The notes beneath the pieces were generated by a model that saw nothing but the letters and a program-made list of their open reading frames with translations, was not told the origin of the DNA and made no database searches. From a virus, in the UHGV virus genome UHGV-0185078: a stretch of DNA of 59,749 nucleotides; one strand, 5' to 3'. The position numbers and the translations under genes were made by a program. Positions 20,442-46,661 of this stretch are shown here, piece after piece. Numbering within the stretch: the first letter of the stretch is position 1; the number at the start of each line of letters is the position of its first letter.

Positions 20442-20668
20442 TAGCGATCCTCGATTGCTCTAATTGTGGTTAAATCTAATTCACAGGTTGGAGGTAATCC
20501 ATAAAGCCCCATTTGTCTTCCTTGCGCATTAAACCATGTACCTGACGGATCCTGCCACTGCTTAGGTGTCTTGTGGAGAAATACTACTCTGTTTTCACCG
20601 TAATAATTAATTCTTACACCTGTGTGAGTATATTTACGTTTACCTTTTGGTCTTCTTAAGTTAGCCAT
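20441..20668 (-). CDS. hypothetical basic protein
   Basis: 75 aa ORF, start and stop overlap neighbours. Confidence 0.4.
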   Translation of the reverse strand: MANLRRPKGKRKYTHTGVRINYYGENRVVFLHKTPKQWQDPSGTWFNAQGRQMGLYGLPPTCELDLTTIRAIEDR

Positions 20669-21588
20669 CAGAACAACTCCATTACACGATCACGGAATGT
20701 GCCATCATGGGTAGCGTTAATGTTTGCAGCAATTACACCATACGCCCATAAGTTGAAGGCAGCACGTGATTCATAGATTGTTGATAAACGTTCGTAAGTG
20801 AAACCGTTTTGCTCAAGGTATTTAAGGACAGCGTCTTGTTCAATTTCAGTTAATGTTGAAACATGCTTACCAAAATGATGGCGGTCCGGTGACTTATCTG
20901 ATACGCGCATTGGCCCCCACGGAGGAGTAACCACACTTCCAAACGCTGCCGCTTGAATCCAGGAGGATGAGTCACAACTATACCACGGATAACGTTCCAT
21001 AATGGTTGTTGACGTAATACCAAACGCATGAAGTTTAATCTTAGCACGTCCGCTACCATCGCAAATATATTTGTCCCACATGCGGTCAAGCCAAGTCTTA
21101 AGCGTGTCCGTTGAACGTCCTACCATGCCCCCGATGGTGATATATTCGTAGTTCTTCATGTAGTATTCAAGATAGCGGAAGTCCTCCCCAAAGTGAAAGC
21201 ACGGTAACGGTTTAGCACCGCGTGCTTCCATTTCAAGCTGGTTACGGTAGGTCTGCAACGGATCACCGATACCATCGAGCACTGACGCCATTACAGCACC
21301 ATCTTCTACCCGCAAAATGTCTTTATTGCGCTTGATGTACTCGCAGTATTCAACAATATCAATGTGAGCACCCAAAGAGTGAGCGGAGAATGCACCAGAG
21401 TCGAGAAACACTTTAGCCCCATCCGCACGCATTTGATCAACATACTTCTGACGCCCAACGTAGTGGTACGATTCCAAAATATGGGGCAGGTTGCGAGTGA
21501 TATTTTTCTCATGCTCGGATAGCTTTTCGTAACGCTGCTGTCCAGGCATATATCCGTTAGTATACACAGCCGCCATGAATACATTCAT
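20668..21588 (-). CDS. dpdA: DpdA, tRNA-guanine transglycosylase-like DNA 7-deazaguanine transglycosylase
   Basis: 306 aa; TGT-like VFLDSGAFS motif; clustered with folE, queD, queC, queE. Confidence 0.75.
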   Translation of the reverse strand: MNVFMAAVYTNGYMPGQQRYEKLSEHEKNITRNLPHILESYHYVGRQKYVDQMRADGAKVFLDSGAFSAHSLGAHIDIVEYCEYIKRNKDILRVEDGAVMASVLDGIGDPLQTYRNQLEMEARGAKPLPCFHFGEDFRYLEYYMKNYEYITIGGMVGRSTDTLKTWLDRMWDKYICDGSGRAKIKLHAFGITSTTIMERYPWYSCDSSSWIQAAAFGSVVTPPWGPMRVSDKSPDRHHFGKHVSTLTEIEQDAVLKYLEQNGFTYERLSTIYESRAAFNLWAYGVIAANINATHDGTFRDRVMELF

Positions 21589-21667: not shown

Positions 21668-22270
21668 TTATTTACAAGCTTCAAGGAACTCCCGGCGCCA
21701 AATTTGCCCCATCTCGGTACATTGATCCGTTTCCCCGCGAAACGCCTTAGTGATGGTAGAGCTTCCGCACACTTGCTTAACGCCGCGCGACTCCATGCAC
21801 ATATGCTTGGCGTCAATATAAACACATACAGCTTTCGGGTTTAAATTCTCTTCAATAGCGTCTGCAATCTGGTTAGTAAGACGTTCCTGAACTTGCAGTC
21901 GACGACTAAAAGCATCCACCACGCGAGACAGCTTACTAAGCCCAACGATCTTCCCATTGGGGACATAACCCACAACAGCATGACCGATAATAGGAGCCAT
22001 GTGATGCTCACAATGGCTGTATACAGGGATATCACGGACAATGACCATTTCATTGGTGTTTTCCGCCCCATCCTCAAAGGTCTTAAACAGCCCAGCAATA
22101 TCTACATCGTAACCGCCGAACCATGTAGCATAGGCTTTAGCGACACGATATGGAGTCTCTTCCAAACCTGGACGTAATTCAGTGCGATTTTCAATTCGAG
22201 TTAGTAAAGCGCGCACCGCGCGAGTAATTTCAAATTGAATACTTTCGTCATTAATAGTAAATTTTGACAT
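21668..22270 (-). CDS. folE: GTP cyclohydrolase I
   Basis: 200 aa; conserved CEHHMAPI...GHAVVGYVPNGKIVGLSKLSRVVD signature. Confidence 0.9.
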   Translation of the reverse strand: MSKFTINDESIQFEITRAVRALLTRIENRTELRPGLEETPYRVAKAYATWFGGYDVDIAGLFKTFEDGAENTNEMVIVRDIPVYSHCEHHMAPIIGHAVVGYVPNGKIVGLSKLSRVVDAFSRRLQVQERLTNQIADAIEENLNPKAVCVYIDAKHMCMESRGVKQVCGSSTITKAFRGETDQCTEMGQIWRREFLEACK

Positions 22271-22305
22271 GGTTTGCAGTTTCCTTGTTTGTTAATGTGG
22301 TCATA

Positions 22306-22839
22306 TTACAGGCTATAGTTTACGTGACATTTCGAAGTTTCTTCGATGGTGCATTCTACAAGTTGAACACCATGTTCGTCAAGCAGTTGCGGCCCAATTA
22401 CGTTTACCATGTATGCAGCTAAGTTTTCCGCAGTAGGGTTGAACGGTAAAGATACCAGCGAGTCAAAGAAATGGTATCCGTCCTCTTGCTCTACCACGTC
22501 ATACCCTATAGCAGCGTCGTGACGTAAAAGAGCATCGAGTCCTTTAATGAGAGGATCATTTTCCCAATGCAGGAATTTATGATCCCAGTTATCTTCCAGC
22601 CATTGGCAGAGCGTAGTTTTAACCACACTAAAATCAATAACGCGCCCAACATCGTCCAGTTTACCTTCAACGGAGAAACCTTTCGCACCCGGGATGTAGT
22701 TTTCGCTTTCTACGCGCTTCGGTGCAACCTTAAAGTGAAACTTATAGTTGTGACCGTGAAGGTGGCGACATTTGCTTTCATGACCCACAACACGATGTCC
22801 GGCGCAAATTTCATGTGAACGAATTACTGTATAGCTCAT
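22306..22839 (-). CDS. queD: 6-carboxy-5,6,7,8-tetrahydropterin synthase
   Basis: 177 aa; CAGHRVVGHESKCRHLHGHNY zinc-binding signature. Confidence 0.85.
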   Translation of the reverse strand: MSYTVIRSHEICAGHRVVGHESKCRHLHGHNYKFHFKVAPKRVESENYIPGAKGFSVEGKLDDVGRVIDFSVVKTTLCQWLEDNWDHKFLHWENDPLIKGLDALLRHDAAIGYDVVEQEDGYHFFDSLVSLPFNPTAENLAAYMVNVIGPQLLDEHGVQLVECTIEETSKCHVNYSL

Positions 22840-23168
22840 TAGAACTTCTCCGCGTGTTTTTCGTATGCTTTATTAATGACAGTGAGAAAGCACTGGTCCC
22901 ACTCACTCCACAGGACTTTACCCATACTTACCGCTTCAATGTAAAAAGTATGAGTGGCATCATCTTGGAACAATTTAATAGTGACGTCCGAACCATTTTG
23001 GATATAACCCATCAACGCGCGTATTTTATCACCTACATCCATGTATGGATTAAACTGAGGAACTGCTTCTTCAACCGCATCAATTAAATCATAAGCTTGC
23101 TGAGGGATGGGATTTCCGAAGGCCTTATGGGCAACACCTATTCTTGCTAGATTGCTCAGCTTATTCAT
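22839..23168 (-). CDS. hypothetical protein inside deazaguanine cluster
   Basis: 109 aa ORF, start/stop overlaps with neighbours imply co-translation in the cluster. Confidence 0.45.
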   Translation of the reverse strand: MNKLSNLARIGVAHKAFGNPIPQQAYDLIDAVEEAVPQFNPYMDVGDKIRALMGYIQNGSDVTIKLFQDDATHTFYIEAVSMGKVLWSEWDQCFLTVINKAYEKHAEKF

Positions 23169-23755
23169 TTTAATACCTCTTTAGATTGTTCGATTTCTAA
23201 CGCACGCTGTGCAGACGCAATAATGTCTTTCAAATCTTCTACCAGACTTTTATGACCGCGTTCGCCCGGCTGCAACGCCTTTTTAATTAAATGTTGTAAA
23301 GCTGGGTTAGTTGTTTTCCAAGCTTCCAAGACATCATACACGTCCACGATGCATTTTACAACATTGCCGTTTTGATCTTTACCATGAATAATTCTCTGAT
23401 ATTTATTCATAGGGATTTTAGACGGTTCGTATTTCGTAAAAACTGCACCATTAAATGTATTACTTATGCTTATTTCACTAGAAGGTTGATGATACACTCC
23501 GGAGCGAGTATTTTCCCGGGCTTGTTTGACGTAATCATCCGCAACGATATATCTCCAGGCTATAATATCTTGAATTTTATAAGGGCTATCCTCATCCATA
23601 GCTGAACGCCCGTCTATAGCCCAATCCCATCCATGTAATAGATTCTTAACGTGTGTGCCGTTGCGCAAACGAACTTCAAACTTTTCATTGCGAAGAAAGA
23701 TTGGCATTCCTTTCCCATCGTGCTGGTGCCAAATTTTATTAAGATTATCTTTCAT
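23165..23755 (-). CDS. hypothetical protein inside deazaguanine cluster
   Basis: Start set to ATG 23755 (track start at 23794 is TTG); 196 aa; no recognised motif. Confidence 0.45.
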   Translation of the reverse strand: MKDNLNKIWHQHDGKGMPIFLRNEKFEVRLRNGTHVKNLLHGWDWAIDGRSAMDEDSPYKIQDIIAWRYIVADDYVKQARENTRSGVYHQPSSEISISNTFNGAVFTKYEPSKIPMNKYQRIIHGKDQNGNVVKCIVDVYDVLEAWKTTNPALQHLIKKALQPGERGHKSLVEDLKDIIASAQRALEIEQSKEVLK

Positions 23756-23756
23756 T

Positions 23757-24239
23757 CTACGCTCTTGCTGTACTTGAATGAACTTCGTAAACAATCCAAA
23801 GGATAGCGGATGCTGTGAACTTACTTAAGCTCATTGCCACCATTGATCCAGGATTAACAATACCTATAATACTTAAGAACACAATGGAGTCAATCGGTAC
23901 AGCTACCAAAGAGCTAATAAATACACGTTGATGAAACGGCTTCTTAGTAATCGTGTATACCGCATAGTCCGCAAACTCACTAAGCGCAAAAGACGCAACG
24001 GATGCAACTACAACAGCAGGATCCCCAAATACCCAGCTAAGGATGCAACCCACAATCATTGCAGGGATAACGCCTTTGCCAGCGTTACGCTGTGCGTAGT
24101 CACGCAACACAAAGATAATACCTACAAAGAAAGCCATCATTGGGACTACACCGAGTGGTGTATTAAGCATTGGAAGGTAGGAAAAGCCCAGGTTTACGAA
24201 TGTAATTGCAGCCAGATAAGCAACGATAAATTTCATACT
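23757..24239 (-). CDS. integral membrane protein, possible YhhQ/QueT-like 7-deazaguanine precursor transporter
   Basis: Start set to ATG 24239 (GGAG RBS 9 nt upstream); 160 aa with 4-5 hydrophobic helices; weak resemblance to the YhhQ family; lies between queD and queC. Confidence 0.4.
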   Translation of the reverse strand, partial: SMKFIVAYLAAITFVNLGFSYLPMLNTPLGVVPMMAFFVGIIFVLRDYAQRNAGKGVIPAMIVGCILSWVFGDPAVVVASVASFALSEFADYAVYTITKKPFHQRVFISSLVAVPIDSIVFLSIIGIVNPGSMVAMSLSKFTASAILWIVYEVHSSTARA

Positions 24240-24356
24240 TTTGTTCTCCAGTTTTAACAGCGTTATTCGCTGGTTGTTGGGTTTAAAAGCTTTAGTAGTA
24301 TAGTTGGGTTCCCGCACCCTAAACAATGCGCTAGCGGTGCGGTTTTCGCGGTAAGA

Positions 24357-25064
24357 TCAAGCTTTGCTAATAAATTCGCTGTACCCTTTAGCACGCAGTT
24401 TGCACGCAGGACATTCACCGCAACCATAGCCCCAGTCATGCAGAGTGCGACGGATACCATTATAGCAGGTATGGGACTGTTCAATTACTGTGGTTAAGAA
24501 ACCAACCTTATCCGCCAGTTCAAACGTTTCCGCTTTGTTTAAACGCATAAGAGGGGTAACAAAATGAATATCTGTTTCATATCCAACGTTTAACGTAGCT
24601 TCAAGGAGATCAACAAACTGCTGGCGACAATCCGGATAACCGCTATAGTCTGTTTCACAAACGCCTGTAACCACATATCGAGCGCCAACTTTCTGTGCGT
24701 AGGCGTGAGCGGTAGTCAGGAAAAGAGCATTACGGTTTGGCACAAAGCTTGCTGGAAGGTTGTTGTGCTGTTCGTGATGTTCGTTAACATCACCTTCGTT
24801 CCCGATTAAAGCGCTATTGCCAATCTGTTTTAAAGCAGGTAATTCAAAGACAACAAATGGGACATCGTGCTCTTTACAAATTTGATTAGCACAAGCCAGC
24901 TCAATGTTATGACGTTGACCGTATGCAAAACCAATAGCGTAGACCTTATCATAGTTATTAAGTGCAAGGCCCAAACAGGTTACGCTGTCCTGGCCGCCAG
25001 ACAGGACGACAACGGCGGAGTTATGATTTTTTACAGGGAATACCAGTTTATCTAATTTATTCAT
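24357..25064 (-). CDS. queC: 7-cyano-7-deazaguanine synthase
   Basis: 235 aa; PP-loop VVVLSGGQDS; C-terminal Zn-Cys cluster CYNG...CGECPAC. Confidence 0.9.
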   Translation of the reverse strand: MNKLDKLVFPVKNHNSAVVVLSGGQDSVTCLGLALNNYDKVYAIGFAYGQRHNIELACANQICKEHDVPFVVFELPALKQIGNSALIGNEGDVNEHHEQHNNLPASFVPNRNALFLTTAHAYAQKVGARYVVTGVCETDYSGYPDCRQQFVDLLEATLNVGYETDIHFVTPLMRLNKAETFELADKVGFLTTVIEQSHTCYNGIRRTLHDWGYGCGECPACKLRAKGYSEFISKA

Positions 25065-25269
25065 TTACTTCACCTTTAATATCACAAGGATTGATTGTTA
25101 CGTTTGACATCACAATTGGATGATTGCGTGCCCCAATTGTACTAACGTAATTAATATCTAATTCTACATGCACGCCCTGCATAGTAGCGTGAGCAATTGC
25201 AGAATTAAGTTTTTCCACCAGCTCAGTGATCATTTCCTGATGCTGTTTCGCTTCTTCCAAAGTGATCAT
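25057..25269 (-). CDS. hypothetical protein inside deazaguanine cluster
   Basis: 70 aa; ATG 25269 with GAAGGTGA RBS; overlaps the upstream ORF. Confidence 0.4.
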   Translation of the reverse strand: MITLEEAKQHQEMITELVEKLNSAIAHATMQGVHVELDINYVSTIGARNHPIVMSNVTINPCDIKGEVNE

Positions 25270-25522
25270 TTCTTTTCACCTTCACTAATGTTTGTTTATA
25301 ATCCATACCTTCAAGGTCAACTTCTGCCATTTCACAAAAGTTATTATCTTCCCAGTATGGTGTCCATTCAGTTTCACCATCCCTCAATGTTGGCTCATAC
25401 TCGAATCCGTAAACTGTACCGTCTTGATCCGTAGCCATCCACCGTACCCATTCAGGGACATCAATCTTATTGCCAAAGTATTCAACTTCTTTAGTATGCA
25501 CAACCTGACTTAACACACGCAT
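25223..25522 (-). CDS. hypothetical acidic protein inside deazaguanine cluster
   Basis: 99 aa ORF, start overlaps queE stop. Confidence 0.4.
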   Translation of the reverse strand: MRVLSQVVHTKEVEYFGNKIDVPEWVRWMATDQDGTVYGFEYEPTLRDGETEWTPYWEDNNFCEMAEVDLEGMDYKQTLVKVKRNDHFGRSETASGNDH

Positions 25523-26229
25523 TATTCCACCCCGATATATTTGTGAACCTGAAGCTGCAACGTGTACCCGTGTTTCATACAGCTTTGGACAACCGCTTGG
25601 ATGTTACTGTGGTTAAGATCTTCATCCTGCTCGTCCATTGGCTGTAAATATATCTTACCCTTGAACCCCTTCGGAGGTCTAGCGATAAATGGCGTAGCTT
25701 GATGATCTAATGCTTGAAGAGGTAAACCATCTTCCACGTTTACACAGCACGCTTTAAGTACATATTTAAATGCATTAGCGCGGTAAAGCACAGAAGGATG
25801 AATCTTTGAGGTCTTGGGACTACATACAATCACAGGCAACTGGGAAAAGTTCTTAGGTAAAGGCATAGACCCATTAGTTTCGATTTGCACCAAATAGCCC
25901 CGCGATAACAGTTGTTCAATAAACGGGTTAATTTGCTGACGGAACGGTTCACCCCCAGTAATAACCACAAGTGAGGTGCTATTGCCTGATTCCAGCTTAC
26001 GGCTTTCGATTAAACGCATGATATCAACAATGTGGTAAAGAGAACGACCAACAGTATAATCCGTGTCGCAGCCCGGGCATTGTAGGTTACATCCAGCAAG
26101 ACGCACAAATACAGCAGGTTGGCCGCAGAATGGCCCTTCACCCTGAATGGTAGAGAATACCGAATGCACGTCTAAATACATATCGTTTTCTTTAGAACGA
26201 GACTCGGGAGCTTGTTGATTAATATTCAT
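25522..26229 (-). CDS. queE: 7-carboxy-7-deazaguanine synthase (radical SAM)
   Basis: 235 aa; radical-SAM Cys triad CNLQCPGCDT; AGAGGA RBS. Confidence 0.9.
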   Translation of the reverse strand: MNINQQAPESRSKENDMYLDVHSVFSTIQGEGPFCGQPAVFVRLAGCNLQCPGCDTDYTVGRSLYHIVDIMRLIESRKLESGNSTSLVVITGGEPFRQQINPFIEQLLSRGYLVQIETNGSMPLPKNFSQLPVIVCSPKTSKIHPSVLYRANAFKYVLKACCVNVEDGLPLQALDHQATPFIARPPKGFKGKIYLQPMDEQDEDLNHSNIQAVVQSCMKHGYTLQLQVHKYIGVE

Positions 26230-26245
26230 CTTAAATCCTCTAGTG

Positions 26246-26274
26246 AAAAAGAAGGCGCCCCATTGGGCGCCTTC
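26246..26274 (-). terminator. rho-independent terminator upstream of queE
   Basis: 10-bp perfect stem gaaggcgccc/gggcgccttc, 4-nt loop, then ttttt on the minus strand. Confidence 0.7.
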
Positions 26275-26298
26275 ATTATAACGTGATATGTTTTGATA

Positions 26299-27102
26299 TT
26301 ACAAGCCGTTCAGGGCTTCCGGTACTGGTACAGGTACGCGACCAGTCACACCATTAAATTTCTTCCAGCGTGCATACTGGGTTTTAACAGTATCTTCGTT
26401 CAGACCGTGACGACCAGCCAGGTTCAGAACATAAGAGATCGGAGCAGGCTGGCCCAGCGTAGCGCTAATCTGGTCCATCAGAGCCCAGGCACGACCGCAG
26501 GAAGTTTCCGGTTGCGGACGGCGAACACCGTTCTGTTCCGGCATACGATTAGCTTCTTTTTCTTTCTCGCGGAGCTCTTTAGCGCGCGCTTTTTCCGCTT
26601 CTTTTTCTGCCTGTTTTGCAGCACGGATCTTGTCTTTGAAGCCTTTAATAGTAGATTCCAGTTCGTCGACCATGCTCTGAGCAGCAGTCACTGCACCGGA
26701 CAGATCTTCACCTTTGGATTTTTTAACAACTGCTTTCAGATCTTTCAGAGCATTCTTTAAATGCTTCAGCTGTTCAGAACCCTTAGATTCTGCTTCCGTA
26801 ATCTGTTCAACAGTGCTTTCATCGGTAATACCGGATAAAGCAAACTTCACGGTTTCAACTGCCTGGGAAAGAGCGGTAAATTTGTTTTCCGCTTCAGCGC
26901 GGATTTCAGCTTGTTTCTTTTCAGCGGCAGCTTTTTTCTCTGCTTCTTTTTTCTCTTTTGCTACGCGTGCAGCTTCAGCAGCAGCGGCTTTCTTAGCTTC
27001 TGCGTCATTCACAGTAGCTTCTTTCTTTGCAGGTTTAGCAGATTTTGCGGCGGCAGCGGCAGCGGCTGCGGCAGCAGCTTTTTTGTCTTCAATGTTGCTC
27101 AT
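26299..27102 (-). CDS. Lys/Ala-rich histone H1-like protein with conserved C-terminal domain
   Basis: ATG 27102 with GGAG RBS; poly-Ala run and KKAAAE repeats; C-terminal WALMDQISATLGQPAP...YARWKKFNG paralogous to C-terminus of ORF 43605-44219. Confidence 0.55.
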   Translation of the reverse strand: MSNIEDKKAAAAAAAAAAAKSAKPAKKEATVNDAEAKKAAAAEAARVAKEKKEAEKKAAAEKKQAEIRAEAENKFTALSQAVETVKFALSGITDESTVEQITEAESKGSEQLKHLKNALKDLKAVVKKSKGEDLSGAVTAAQSMVDELESTIKGFKDKIRAAKQAEKEAEKARAKELREKEKEANRMPEQNGVRRPQPETSCGRAWALMDQISATLGQPAPISYVLNLAGRHGLNEDTVKTQYARWKKFNGVTGRVPVPVPEALNGL

Positions 27103-46358: not shown

Positions 46359-46661
46359 ATGCTGTATTTAGGAATGGACGAAACTGGACACGCAATTCCT
46401 TCTGTCAACAAGAAGACGCAAGTATTTACAGACTATTACGGGTCTGCTATCCCTGTAGAGGCTTGGGCTAACTTTATCGCTGTAGATGCAGACGGTAAAG
46501 TTCATTGTTATGACGCCAAACCTTCTTGCTATGAATCTGGTAAGCAATGGATGCTTGGCGTATACGGTTTGCATGTTCGCTACTGCGGCGAAGTTGACAT
46601 TGAAGGTGTGGACTGGCGCGATACGCTAATGGAAATTAAAGAATATAGGCTTAACCAATGA
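46359..46661 (+). CDS. hypothetical protein
   Basis: 100 aa, GGAGG RBS. Confidence 0.45.
   Translation: MLYLGMDETGHAIPSVNKKTQVFTDYYGSAIPVEAWANFIAVDADGKVHCYDAKPSCYESGKQWMLGVYGLHVRYCGEVDIEGVDWRDTLMEIKEYRLNQ

Follow-up and report, generated by a model that had tools for sequence, protein, structure and literature searches.

The closest described system is the deazaguanine gene cluster of coliphage CAjan, which comprises twelve genes, six of them assigned (folE, queD, queE, queC, yhhQ, and dpdA) and the remainder without assigned function (Kot et al. 2020, PMC7544227). In CAjan, yhhQ was listed as a putative preQ0 transporter; deletion of folE, queC, or dpdA abolished the modification signal, and deletion of yhhQ left the modified fraction like that of the wild type (G 36.0% versus 34.9%; PMC7544227). 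Mass spectrometry of CAjan DNA revealed 70,628 dPreQ0 per 10^6 nucleotides (nt), with dADG, dG+, dPreQ1, and dQ each below 6 per 10^6 nt (Hutinet et al. 2019, PMC6884629). The dPreQ0 level corresponds to ~30% of G, and the queC deletion retains a residual modification ~12-fold lower, which has been ascribed to preQ0 made by the host. The present analysis concerns the corresponding region of the virus genome UHGV-0185078, a stretch of 59,749 nt that is referred to here in its full length as the window, and in particular five genes at 22839-25522 that a preliminary description had left unassigned: one membrane protein gene and four soluble open reading frames (ORFs A, B, D, and E). The window was found to be a Seuratvirus (Queuovirinae) genome, with ~93% nucleotide identity to CSP1, Greed, WildeMaa, and Seurat. 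Forty-six phage records match the 22300-26300 stretch, 28 of the 46 over at least 80% of its length, and the best matches are Seuratviruses. The region is the dPreQ0 DNA-modification cluster of Seuratvirus coliphages, which has already been described; publications cover the order of the genes, the assignment of the transporter, and the presence of genes without assignment, and the window contributes a further Seuratvirus whose complement of small ORFs differs slightly.

We consider it likely that the region consists of the known dPreQ0 cluster, a YhhQ-type transporter, and four accessory soluble ORFs. FolE, QueD, QueE, and QueC would make preQ0 from GTP and DpdA would exchange guanine for preQ0 in the phage DNA, both steps being established in the literature for CAjan, while the membrane protein would import a precursor, topping up or replacing de novo synthesis. 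The soluble ORFs would be small accessory genes whose families are promiscuous among phages and which, being part of the operon, also have its early or middle timing of expression, ORFs A and E as sporadic, fast-turnover insertions, and ORFs B and D as conserved passengers whose families are not pathway-specific. The cluster runs in the order queE-E-D-queC-(leader)-yhhQ-B-A-queD-folE-dpdA, with the following features (lengths in amino acids, aa):

25522-26229, minus strand: queE, 7-carboxy-7-deazaguanine synthase, first gene of the block (Pfam Radical_SAM and Fer4_12)
25223-25522, minus strand: ORF E, 99 aa (phrog_1972)
25057-25269, minus strand: ORF D, 70 aa (phrog_26258), its position kept between queE and queC
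24357-25064, minus strand: queC, preQ0 synthase (Pfam QueC, E 1.2e-74)
24237-24356, minus strand: conserved leader of 120 nt (alignment of seven Seuratviruses, RNAalifold)
23757-24236, minus strand: YhhQ/VUT-family membrane protein, 159 aa, as matched by Pfam Vut_1 and TIGR00697
23165-23755, minus strand: ORF B, 196 aa from its ATG (phrog_23361)
22839-23168, minus strand: ORF A, 109 aa (homologue in Nonagvirus BRET)
22306-22839, minus strand: queD (Pfam PTPS, E 8.5e-22)
21668-22270, minus strand: folE, GTP cyclohydrolase I (Pfam GTP_cyclohydroI, E 1e-62)
20668-21588, minus strand: dpdA, DNA deazaguanine transglycosylase (99-100% identity to the annotated DpdA of WildeMaa and CAjan)

The five ORFs are real genes under purifying selection. 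All five were confirmed, on the minus strand, each with homologues in other phages, an ATG start, and a plausible Shine-Dalgarno site, and the annotated minus-strand gene order of the relatives is the same as that of the window. The ratios of nonsynonymous to synonymous substitution rates (dN/dS) against relatives are below 1 for all five: 0.013-0.035 for the YhhQ-like protein, 0.05-0.12 for ORF D, 0.07 for ORF A (measured against BRET), 0.09-0.30 for ORF B, and 0.29-0.70 for ORF E, compared with 0.005-0.034 for the enzymes DpdA, QueC, and QueE. QueE itself is 99% identical to the annotated QueE of WildeMaa, Greed, and CAjan, with dN/dS of 0.02-0.03. Spurious or chance ORFs are ruled out by the homologues and these ratios. 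The start previously placed at 24239 for the membrane gene lies one codon too far upstream, the ATG being at 24236, and queC too is located between queD and queE. Most of the ORFs do overlap or abut the pathway genes, as proposed (junctions to the upstream gene of -1, -47, -8, +1, -4, and -1 nt), and share one tightly packed transcription unit with them; the exception is the membrane gene, which the 120-nt leader separates from queC.

Several lines of evidence bear on what the four soluble ORFs do. The preliminary description had offered them as candidates for additional modification steps or for protection of the host pool, and the comparative data point the other way. ORFs A and E come and go among relatives whose enzyme sets are 97-100% identical, and are thus dispensable in nature; the families of ORFs B, D, and E extend to, or are found chiefly in, phages that have no DpdA or que genes. 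The earlier statement that ORFs A, B, D, and E lack recognizable motifs holds against Pfam and NCBIfam and has to be amended for PHROGs, where ORFs B, D, and E belong to families whose function labels, where given, are not credible. None of the four could be matched to an enzyme family or a solved fold: Pfam and NCBIfam searches revealed no signature of a methyltransferase, amidotransferase, reductase, formyltransferase, or other enzyme, and no match beyond noise to QueF, QueF-L, Gat-QueC/ArcS, DpdL, DpdM, or DpdN. The sole QueF-like match in Pfam is sub-threshold and lies inside FolE. Searches of ORFs A and D and of the YhhQ-like protein against the sequences of the Protein Data Bank gave no match. 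Finally, CAjan, which has homologues of ORFs B and D, shows only dPreQ0 among the five derivatives assayed in its DNA (PMC6884629). From their distribution, their size, the lack of enzyme signatures, and the four other derivatives undetected in CAjan DNA, the soluble ORFs most likely have roles in host takeover, anti-defence, or general nucleotide or DNA metabolism, and not in deazaguanine chemistry.

The weak resemblance of the membrane protein to YhhQ, noted in the preliminary description, was borne out by profile methods. The protein matches Pfam Vut_1 (PF02592) with an E-value of 1.8e-5 and 25.6 bits, 1.6 bits short of the gathering cut-off of 27.2, and four phage relatives (47-78% identity) score 38.1, 38.0, 27.7, and 27.0 bits, three of the four above the cut-off. 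An hhalign comparison of a seven-sequence phage alignment with Escherichia coli YhhQ gave P 4e-5 and a probability of 70% over 107 collinear columns; pairwise BLAST of the phage protein against E. coli YhhQ was not significant. A Kyte-Doolittle scan showed hydrophobic stretches throughout the 159 aa, with about six candidate helices. Like E. coli YhhQ (Vut_1/DUF165, COG1738), the phage protein is a predicted multi-pass membrane protein with the motifs AS..(F/Y)AL.(E/Q)..D..V(F/Y) and D(S/T).(V/A)F, but the E. coli protein has 221 aa compared with 159 aa in the phage, where the ends and loops are shorter. These matches place the membrane protein in the VUT/YhhQ family, as a compact member.

Relatives of the membrane protein were detected by tblastn in 77 phage records, mainly from Escherichia, Vibrio, and Rhizobium phages, and GenBank records of relatives label it 'preQ0 transporter'. 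The phage groups that carry the YhhQ-like protein also have DpdA, and in Vibrio phage 1.207.B both are present. Because of this shared occurrence and its family membership, the protein is most likely an importer of preQ0 or a related 7-deazaguanine base, and is termed putative here. It is constrained as strongly as the cluster enzymes, judged by dN/dS. Deletion of the unassigned ORFs followed by analysis of the modified base, as the preliminary description had proposed, has been carried out for yhhQ only, in CAjan, and modification was unchanged (PMC7544227). Phage yhhQ is thus dispensable for modification in rich medium.

The leader between queC and yhhQ is itself conserved. Its 3′ half, TTTTAAACCCAACAACCAGCG..CGCTGTTAAAACTGGAGAACAAAAG-ATG, is near-invariant in seven Seuratviruses, Hafnia phage yong3 included, and yong3 keeps this half although its ORF D is only 46% identical. 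RNAalifold applied to the seven sequences predicted a hairpin and a fold in which the Shine-Dalgarno site is paired; no covariation was found in the seven-sequence alignment. That the near-invariant leader is a regulatory RNA sensing a deazaguanine precursor is a remote possibility. A preQ1 riboswitch was considered because of a superficial preQ1-I appearance (a hairpin and an A-rich tail with ACUAA) and was rejected: Rfam searches of 8-kb and 146-nt stretches gave no match to the leader at E-values up to 10, a search of the whole window at gathering scores gave no match, and the preQ1-like loop is not conserved in yong3. The invariant leader might regulate yhhQ translation. In the related records L009 and L010, the gap between queC and yhhQ contains a G+C-rich hairpin instead. 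In these two records, whose QueC is 60-69% identical, YhhQ is kept and ORFs A, B, D, and E are missing, with no ORF B within 6 kb.

ORFs A and E show the most irregular distribution. ORF A has no match in Pfam, PHROG, or NCBIfam, and its one full-length homologue is in Nonagvirus BRET, with 89% identity and in the same place directly upstream of queD. Its first 45 aa are common to CAjan gp39 and Skure, and its C-terminal half is similar to small Klebsiella phage ORFs and to 9NA gp79, whose gene comes directly after one for a DNA methyltransferase. ORF A is absent from WildeMaa, Greed, slur01, and L008, whose DpdA, QueC, and QueE are 97-100% identical to those of the window. Judged from this distribution, ORF A is a sporadic, mosaic, dispensable accessory insertion. 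ORF E belongs to phrog_1972 (E 1.7e-22) and matches six other PHROGs, none with a function label. A word-index homologue search gave three matches only, and the wider family became visible through PHROGs and tblastn, the latter detecting relatives in 237 phage records, jumbo phages and Phapecoctavirus included, often with several copies per genome. ORF E is absent from CAjan and L008, and its counterpart in WildeMaa and slur01 is only 46-55% identical. By its homologues, ORF E is a stand-alone copy of a widespread small phage domain and a fast-turnover accessory gene. The window carries a second copy outside the cluster:

46359-46661, plus strand: ORF E paralogue, 100 aa, among small ORFs (tblastn, 32% identity, E 2e-10)

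In three metagenomic proteins (P0075, P0080, and P0091), an ORF E-type domain is fused to an ORF B-type C-terminal module, and these fusions link the two otherwise separate families. The N-terminal domain of ORF B was also compared with the ORF E-type domain, and no kinship was found (P 0.57).

ORF D was detected in 39 phage records, nearly all from Seuratviruses, with identities of 94-99% in most and 69% in STP-SP5. Hafnia phage yong3 has a homologue with 46% identity, likewise placed between queE and queC. When 1.84 billion representative proteins were searched exhaustively with HMMER, only six ORF D clusters were returned. The family spans ~65 residues, with an N-terminal helix followed by strands. 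Three relatives outside the Seuratviruses have a readable context and lie in small early ORF arrays with no que genes nearby, which in the Nonanavirus lineage is just upstream of rdgC; two further such relatives are on contigs shorter than 1.4 kb, in which no context is visible. By these records, ORF D is a conserved genus-level small protein. The label 'radical SAM' attached to this 70-aa family was rejected, as the protein has a single cysteine, no CxxxCxxC motif, and no Pfam domain match; the label (RefSeq CAjan gp44, phrog_26258) is an annotation error that has spread to RefSeq and PHROGs.

ORF B is made up of a small beta domain at the N-terminus (23546-23755), which varies, followed by a disordered linker and a highly conserved C-terminal module (23168-23404), for which the AlphaFold2 model, with a confidence score (pLDDT) of 76-93, predicts a beta-hairpin and three helices. 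The protein belongs to phrog_23361, and its C-terminal module is also found in phrog_2452, 35158, 18443, 13223, and 17613. A homologue search returned 410 proteins, of which the full-length relatives are Seuratvirus proteins; the others share the last 55-80 residues only, with up to 79% identity, behind unrelated N-termini. Thirteen residues are invariant in 121 sequences: Y119, D138, Y140, D141, A145, H155, K158, K159, L161, G164, R166, H168, and K169. The module occurs in 754 phage records, including 369 from Salmonella, 192 from Escherichia, and 44 from Acinetobacter phages, compared with 237 records for DpdA, of which just 3 are from Salmonella phages; these counts imply that most carriers of the module lack the deazaguanine pathway. 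In the 6-kb stretches examined from Jerseyvirus, PEi21, phage C1, and Acinetobacter phages, que genes are absent and the module is part of small-ORF islands. In Jerseyviruses, a 76-aa module of this type overlaps the stop codon of an SbcD/Mre11-like phosphoesterase gene, and these two genes and a third, for superinfection immunity, make up an island within the tail module that is encoded on the opposite strand (L025 1868-3225, from Salmonella phage SETP7, and L003 1820-3177). In the yong3 cluster, ORF B is present as the module alone.

Four points weigh against the reading of a known cluster with a transporter and accessory passengers. First, the membrane protein widely misses the TIGR00697 equivalog cut-off (21.2 bits, E 2e-4, against 50.95 bits), and for that reason we infer, and do not observe, its preQ0 specificity. 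Second, three Queuovirinae lineages have a B-type protein within the que cluster, each at a different position: yhhQ/B/queD in Seuratvirus, queE/B/gat-queC in Nonagvirus BRET, and queC/B/yhhQ in EC151. Third, the location of ORF D between queE and queC is retained even in yong3, which is divergent. The persistence of ORFs B and D in the cluster, the strongest argument against treating them purely as passengers, could reflect a functional tie and not simple inheritance. Fourth, the published mass spectrometry targeted known deazaguanine derivatives only.

Of the alternatives, the one that stands up best is that ORF B is divergently related to the DUF3310 domain (PF11753) of T7 gp1.7 and would help to keep guanine nucleotides available. 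T7 gp1.7 is a nucleotide kinase that produces dGDP and dTDP from dGMP and dTMP, and guanine supply would matter here, as the phage spends one GTP per preQ0 and frees guanine from its DNA. The architectures are alike: T7 gp1.7 is likewise 196 aa long, its N-terminus is variable, and its DUF3310 domain is C-terminal, at residues 122-184 (Pfam E 4.5e-23); the two modules, as modeled, appear to have the same order of elements, namely two short strands, a short helix, and two longer helices. The two families resemble each other in motif pattern, and the programs hhalign and hmmsearch consistently pair ALQHLIKKALQPGERGHK..EDL with GNILKYRLRAGKK..EDL. The same profile region of phrog_25460 matches T7 gp1.7 (E 1e-3) and the B-family protein PEi21 gp10 (E 3e-4), and phrog_23238 combines an N-terminal region common with an Acinetobacter B-type protein and a DUF3310 C-terminus. 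A Foldseek search with the ORF B model returned a 'nucleotide kinase' at E 6e-3 (probability 0.96) and a polynucleotide kinase at E 0.011; the 'nucleotide kinase' matches range from E 6e-3 to 0.13 and are one-way only. The top 50 of the reciprocal search with a T7-like DUF3310 model (pLDDT 82) consisted of DUF3310, SaV, and kinase proteins, with the B family absent. One GenBank record labels a 76-aa B-type protein 'DUF3310', and the overlap of the Jerseyvirus module with the stop codon of the SbcD-like nuclease gene also counts in favor. Many T7-like proteins annotated as nucleotide kinases have only 79-130 aa, barely more than the DUF3310 domain.

The direct comparisons are less favorable to this kinship. 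None of 16 B-family proteins matches the Pfam DUF3310 model (E-values up to 0.1 searched for ORF B and up to 1-5 for the other 15). As the diversity of the alignments was increased, hhalign gave P 0.27, 0.12, 0.086, and 0.039, which is not significant even with six diverse DUF3310 proteins added and counts as a weak negative, the alignments being of low diversity (Neff 2-3); hmmsearch gave p 0.02-0.08. Both types coexist in Acinetobacter phages and are thus at least distinct families, and the deazaguanine pathway is missing from most carriers of the B module. No solved structure was found for either the B family or the DUF3310 family. Proven kinase activity is limited to T7 gp1.7, and further members of the DUF3310 family, among them SaV (PMC8306868) and the mycobacteriophage growth inhibitors (PMC10700055), are known for their toxicity as early proteins; T7 gp1.7 itself triggers Avs5 (PMC11897194). 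In view of these roles, homology alone would not fix the function of ORF B. We regard the link suggested by the models and profiles as possible but unlikely. Beside this comparison, two observations can be recorded: if the short T7-like annotations hold, the DUF3310 domain would carry the kinase activity, and T7 gp1.7 and Vibrio phage VBP47 (L031 667-1257) have a common N-terminal GL.DG.AWEK motif.

A more specific proposal is that ORF B persists in the clusters of three lineages because its conserved module is a highly divergent gp1.7/DUF3310-like kinase that re-phosphorylates (d)GMP and closes a salvage loop, and this we consider distinctly unlikely. If true, guanine released by DpdA would pass through GMP, GDP, and GTP back into preQ0 synthesis, and nucleotide supply would be a hidden seventh function of the cluster.

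It is very unlikely, in our estimate, that some of the small ORFs, and ORF E above all, encode anti-defence proteins (for example anti-CRISPR-like) carried in an early operon. ORF E evolves fast (dN/dS 0.3-0.7), turns over between close relatives, and is multi-copy and widespread in virulent phages, all of which would suit such a role. With ORF E alone as the query, the anti-CRISPR protein AcrIC9 takes second (8g9t) and third (8hjj) place among the Protein Data Bank matches, and with the ORF E family profile it is the sole match there, but the E-values of 0.42, 0.77, and 0.7 are not significant, and no defence-related context of ORF E was found. ORF E was therefore rejected as an AcrIC9 homologue, its sequence similarity not being significant.

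Highly improbable is the idea that the soluble ORFs add deazaguanine modification steps or shield the host tRNA/queuosine pool: the ORFs are translationally coupled to pathway genes, ORFs B and D hold their place across divergent Seuratviruses, and the same reasoning led to DpdL, DpdM, and DpdN in other phages (PMC10516641), but the distributions, the missing enzyme signatures, and the single derivative in CAjan DNA set out above stand against it, as does ORF D, which has only 70 aa and relatives that do not adjoin que genes.

The known cluster with its transporter and accessory ORFs is probably transcribed as one leftward operon. A terminator-like hairpin marks its upstream edge:

26251-26274, minus strand: hairpin just upstream of queE, 10 bp (8 of them G-C) with a T run after it

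The sequence of this hairpin is GAAGGCGCCC-AATG-GGGCGCCTTC, then the T run, and all weak Rfam matches to small RNAs trace to it. No comparable hairpin was found inside the block in a hairpin scan whose counts were not above shuffled expectation; a strong hairpin upstream of queE and none inside the block fits a single transcript. A promoter-like site (10 of 12 matches) overlaps this hairpin at 26251-26304 on the minus strand, between a 270-aa Ala/Lys/Glu-rich gene and queE.

Comparison with the related records L001 to L008 revealed mosaicism within 21668-23755. DpdA, QueC, QueE, and YhhQ are 97-100% identical to their nearest relatives, FolE 83-88%, QueD 74-77%, and ORF B 55-97%. ORF A shares 89% identity with Nonagvirus BRET_32, yet the QueD of BRET is 75% identical. 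These values suggest recombination across genera in this segment.

Deazaguanine modification of DNA allows escape from many restriction enzymes and is of interest for phage therapy and DNA chemistry. Checking the genes without assignment in such clusters is sensible, since earlier work of this kind yielded DpdL, DpdM, and DpdN. For the window, the outcome mostly closes the question: the transporter is known, ORFs A and E would be dispensable insertions, and the families of ORFs B and D are not tied to the pathway.

The approach that led to DpdL, DpdM, and DpdN was the mining of ORFs embedded in a deazaguanine cluster, as here (Cui et al. 2023, PMC10516641). Those proteins are enzyme-sized, occur in pathway phages only, and were matched to a newly detected base, whereas the ORFs of the window are small, are not pathway-specific, and have no extra base known to go with them. 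In the same study, non-conserved proteins of ~60 aa were dropped (PMC10516641). The closer comparison is with CAjan, which has the same gene set and order, namely dpdA, folE, queD, a small ORF, gp40 (ORF B), yhhQ (gp41), queC, gp44 (ORF D), and queE, and whose DpdA, QueC, QueE, and YhhQ are 97-100% identical to those of the window. The differences lie in the small ORFs and in the segment around them. The window has a full-length ORF A, of which CAjan gp39 shares the first 45 aa only, and an ORF E that CAjan does not have, whereas the CAjan small ORFs gp36 and gp43 are missing from the window. ORF B and gp40 share 55% identity, and FolE and QueD share 77-88% with their CAjan counterparts.

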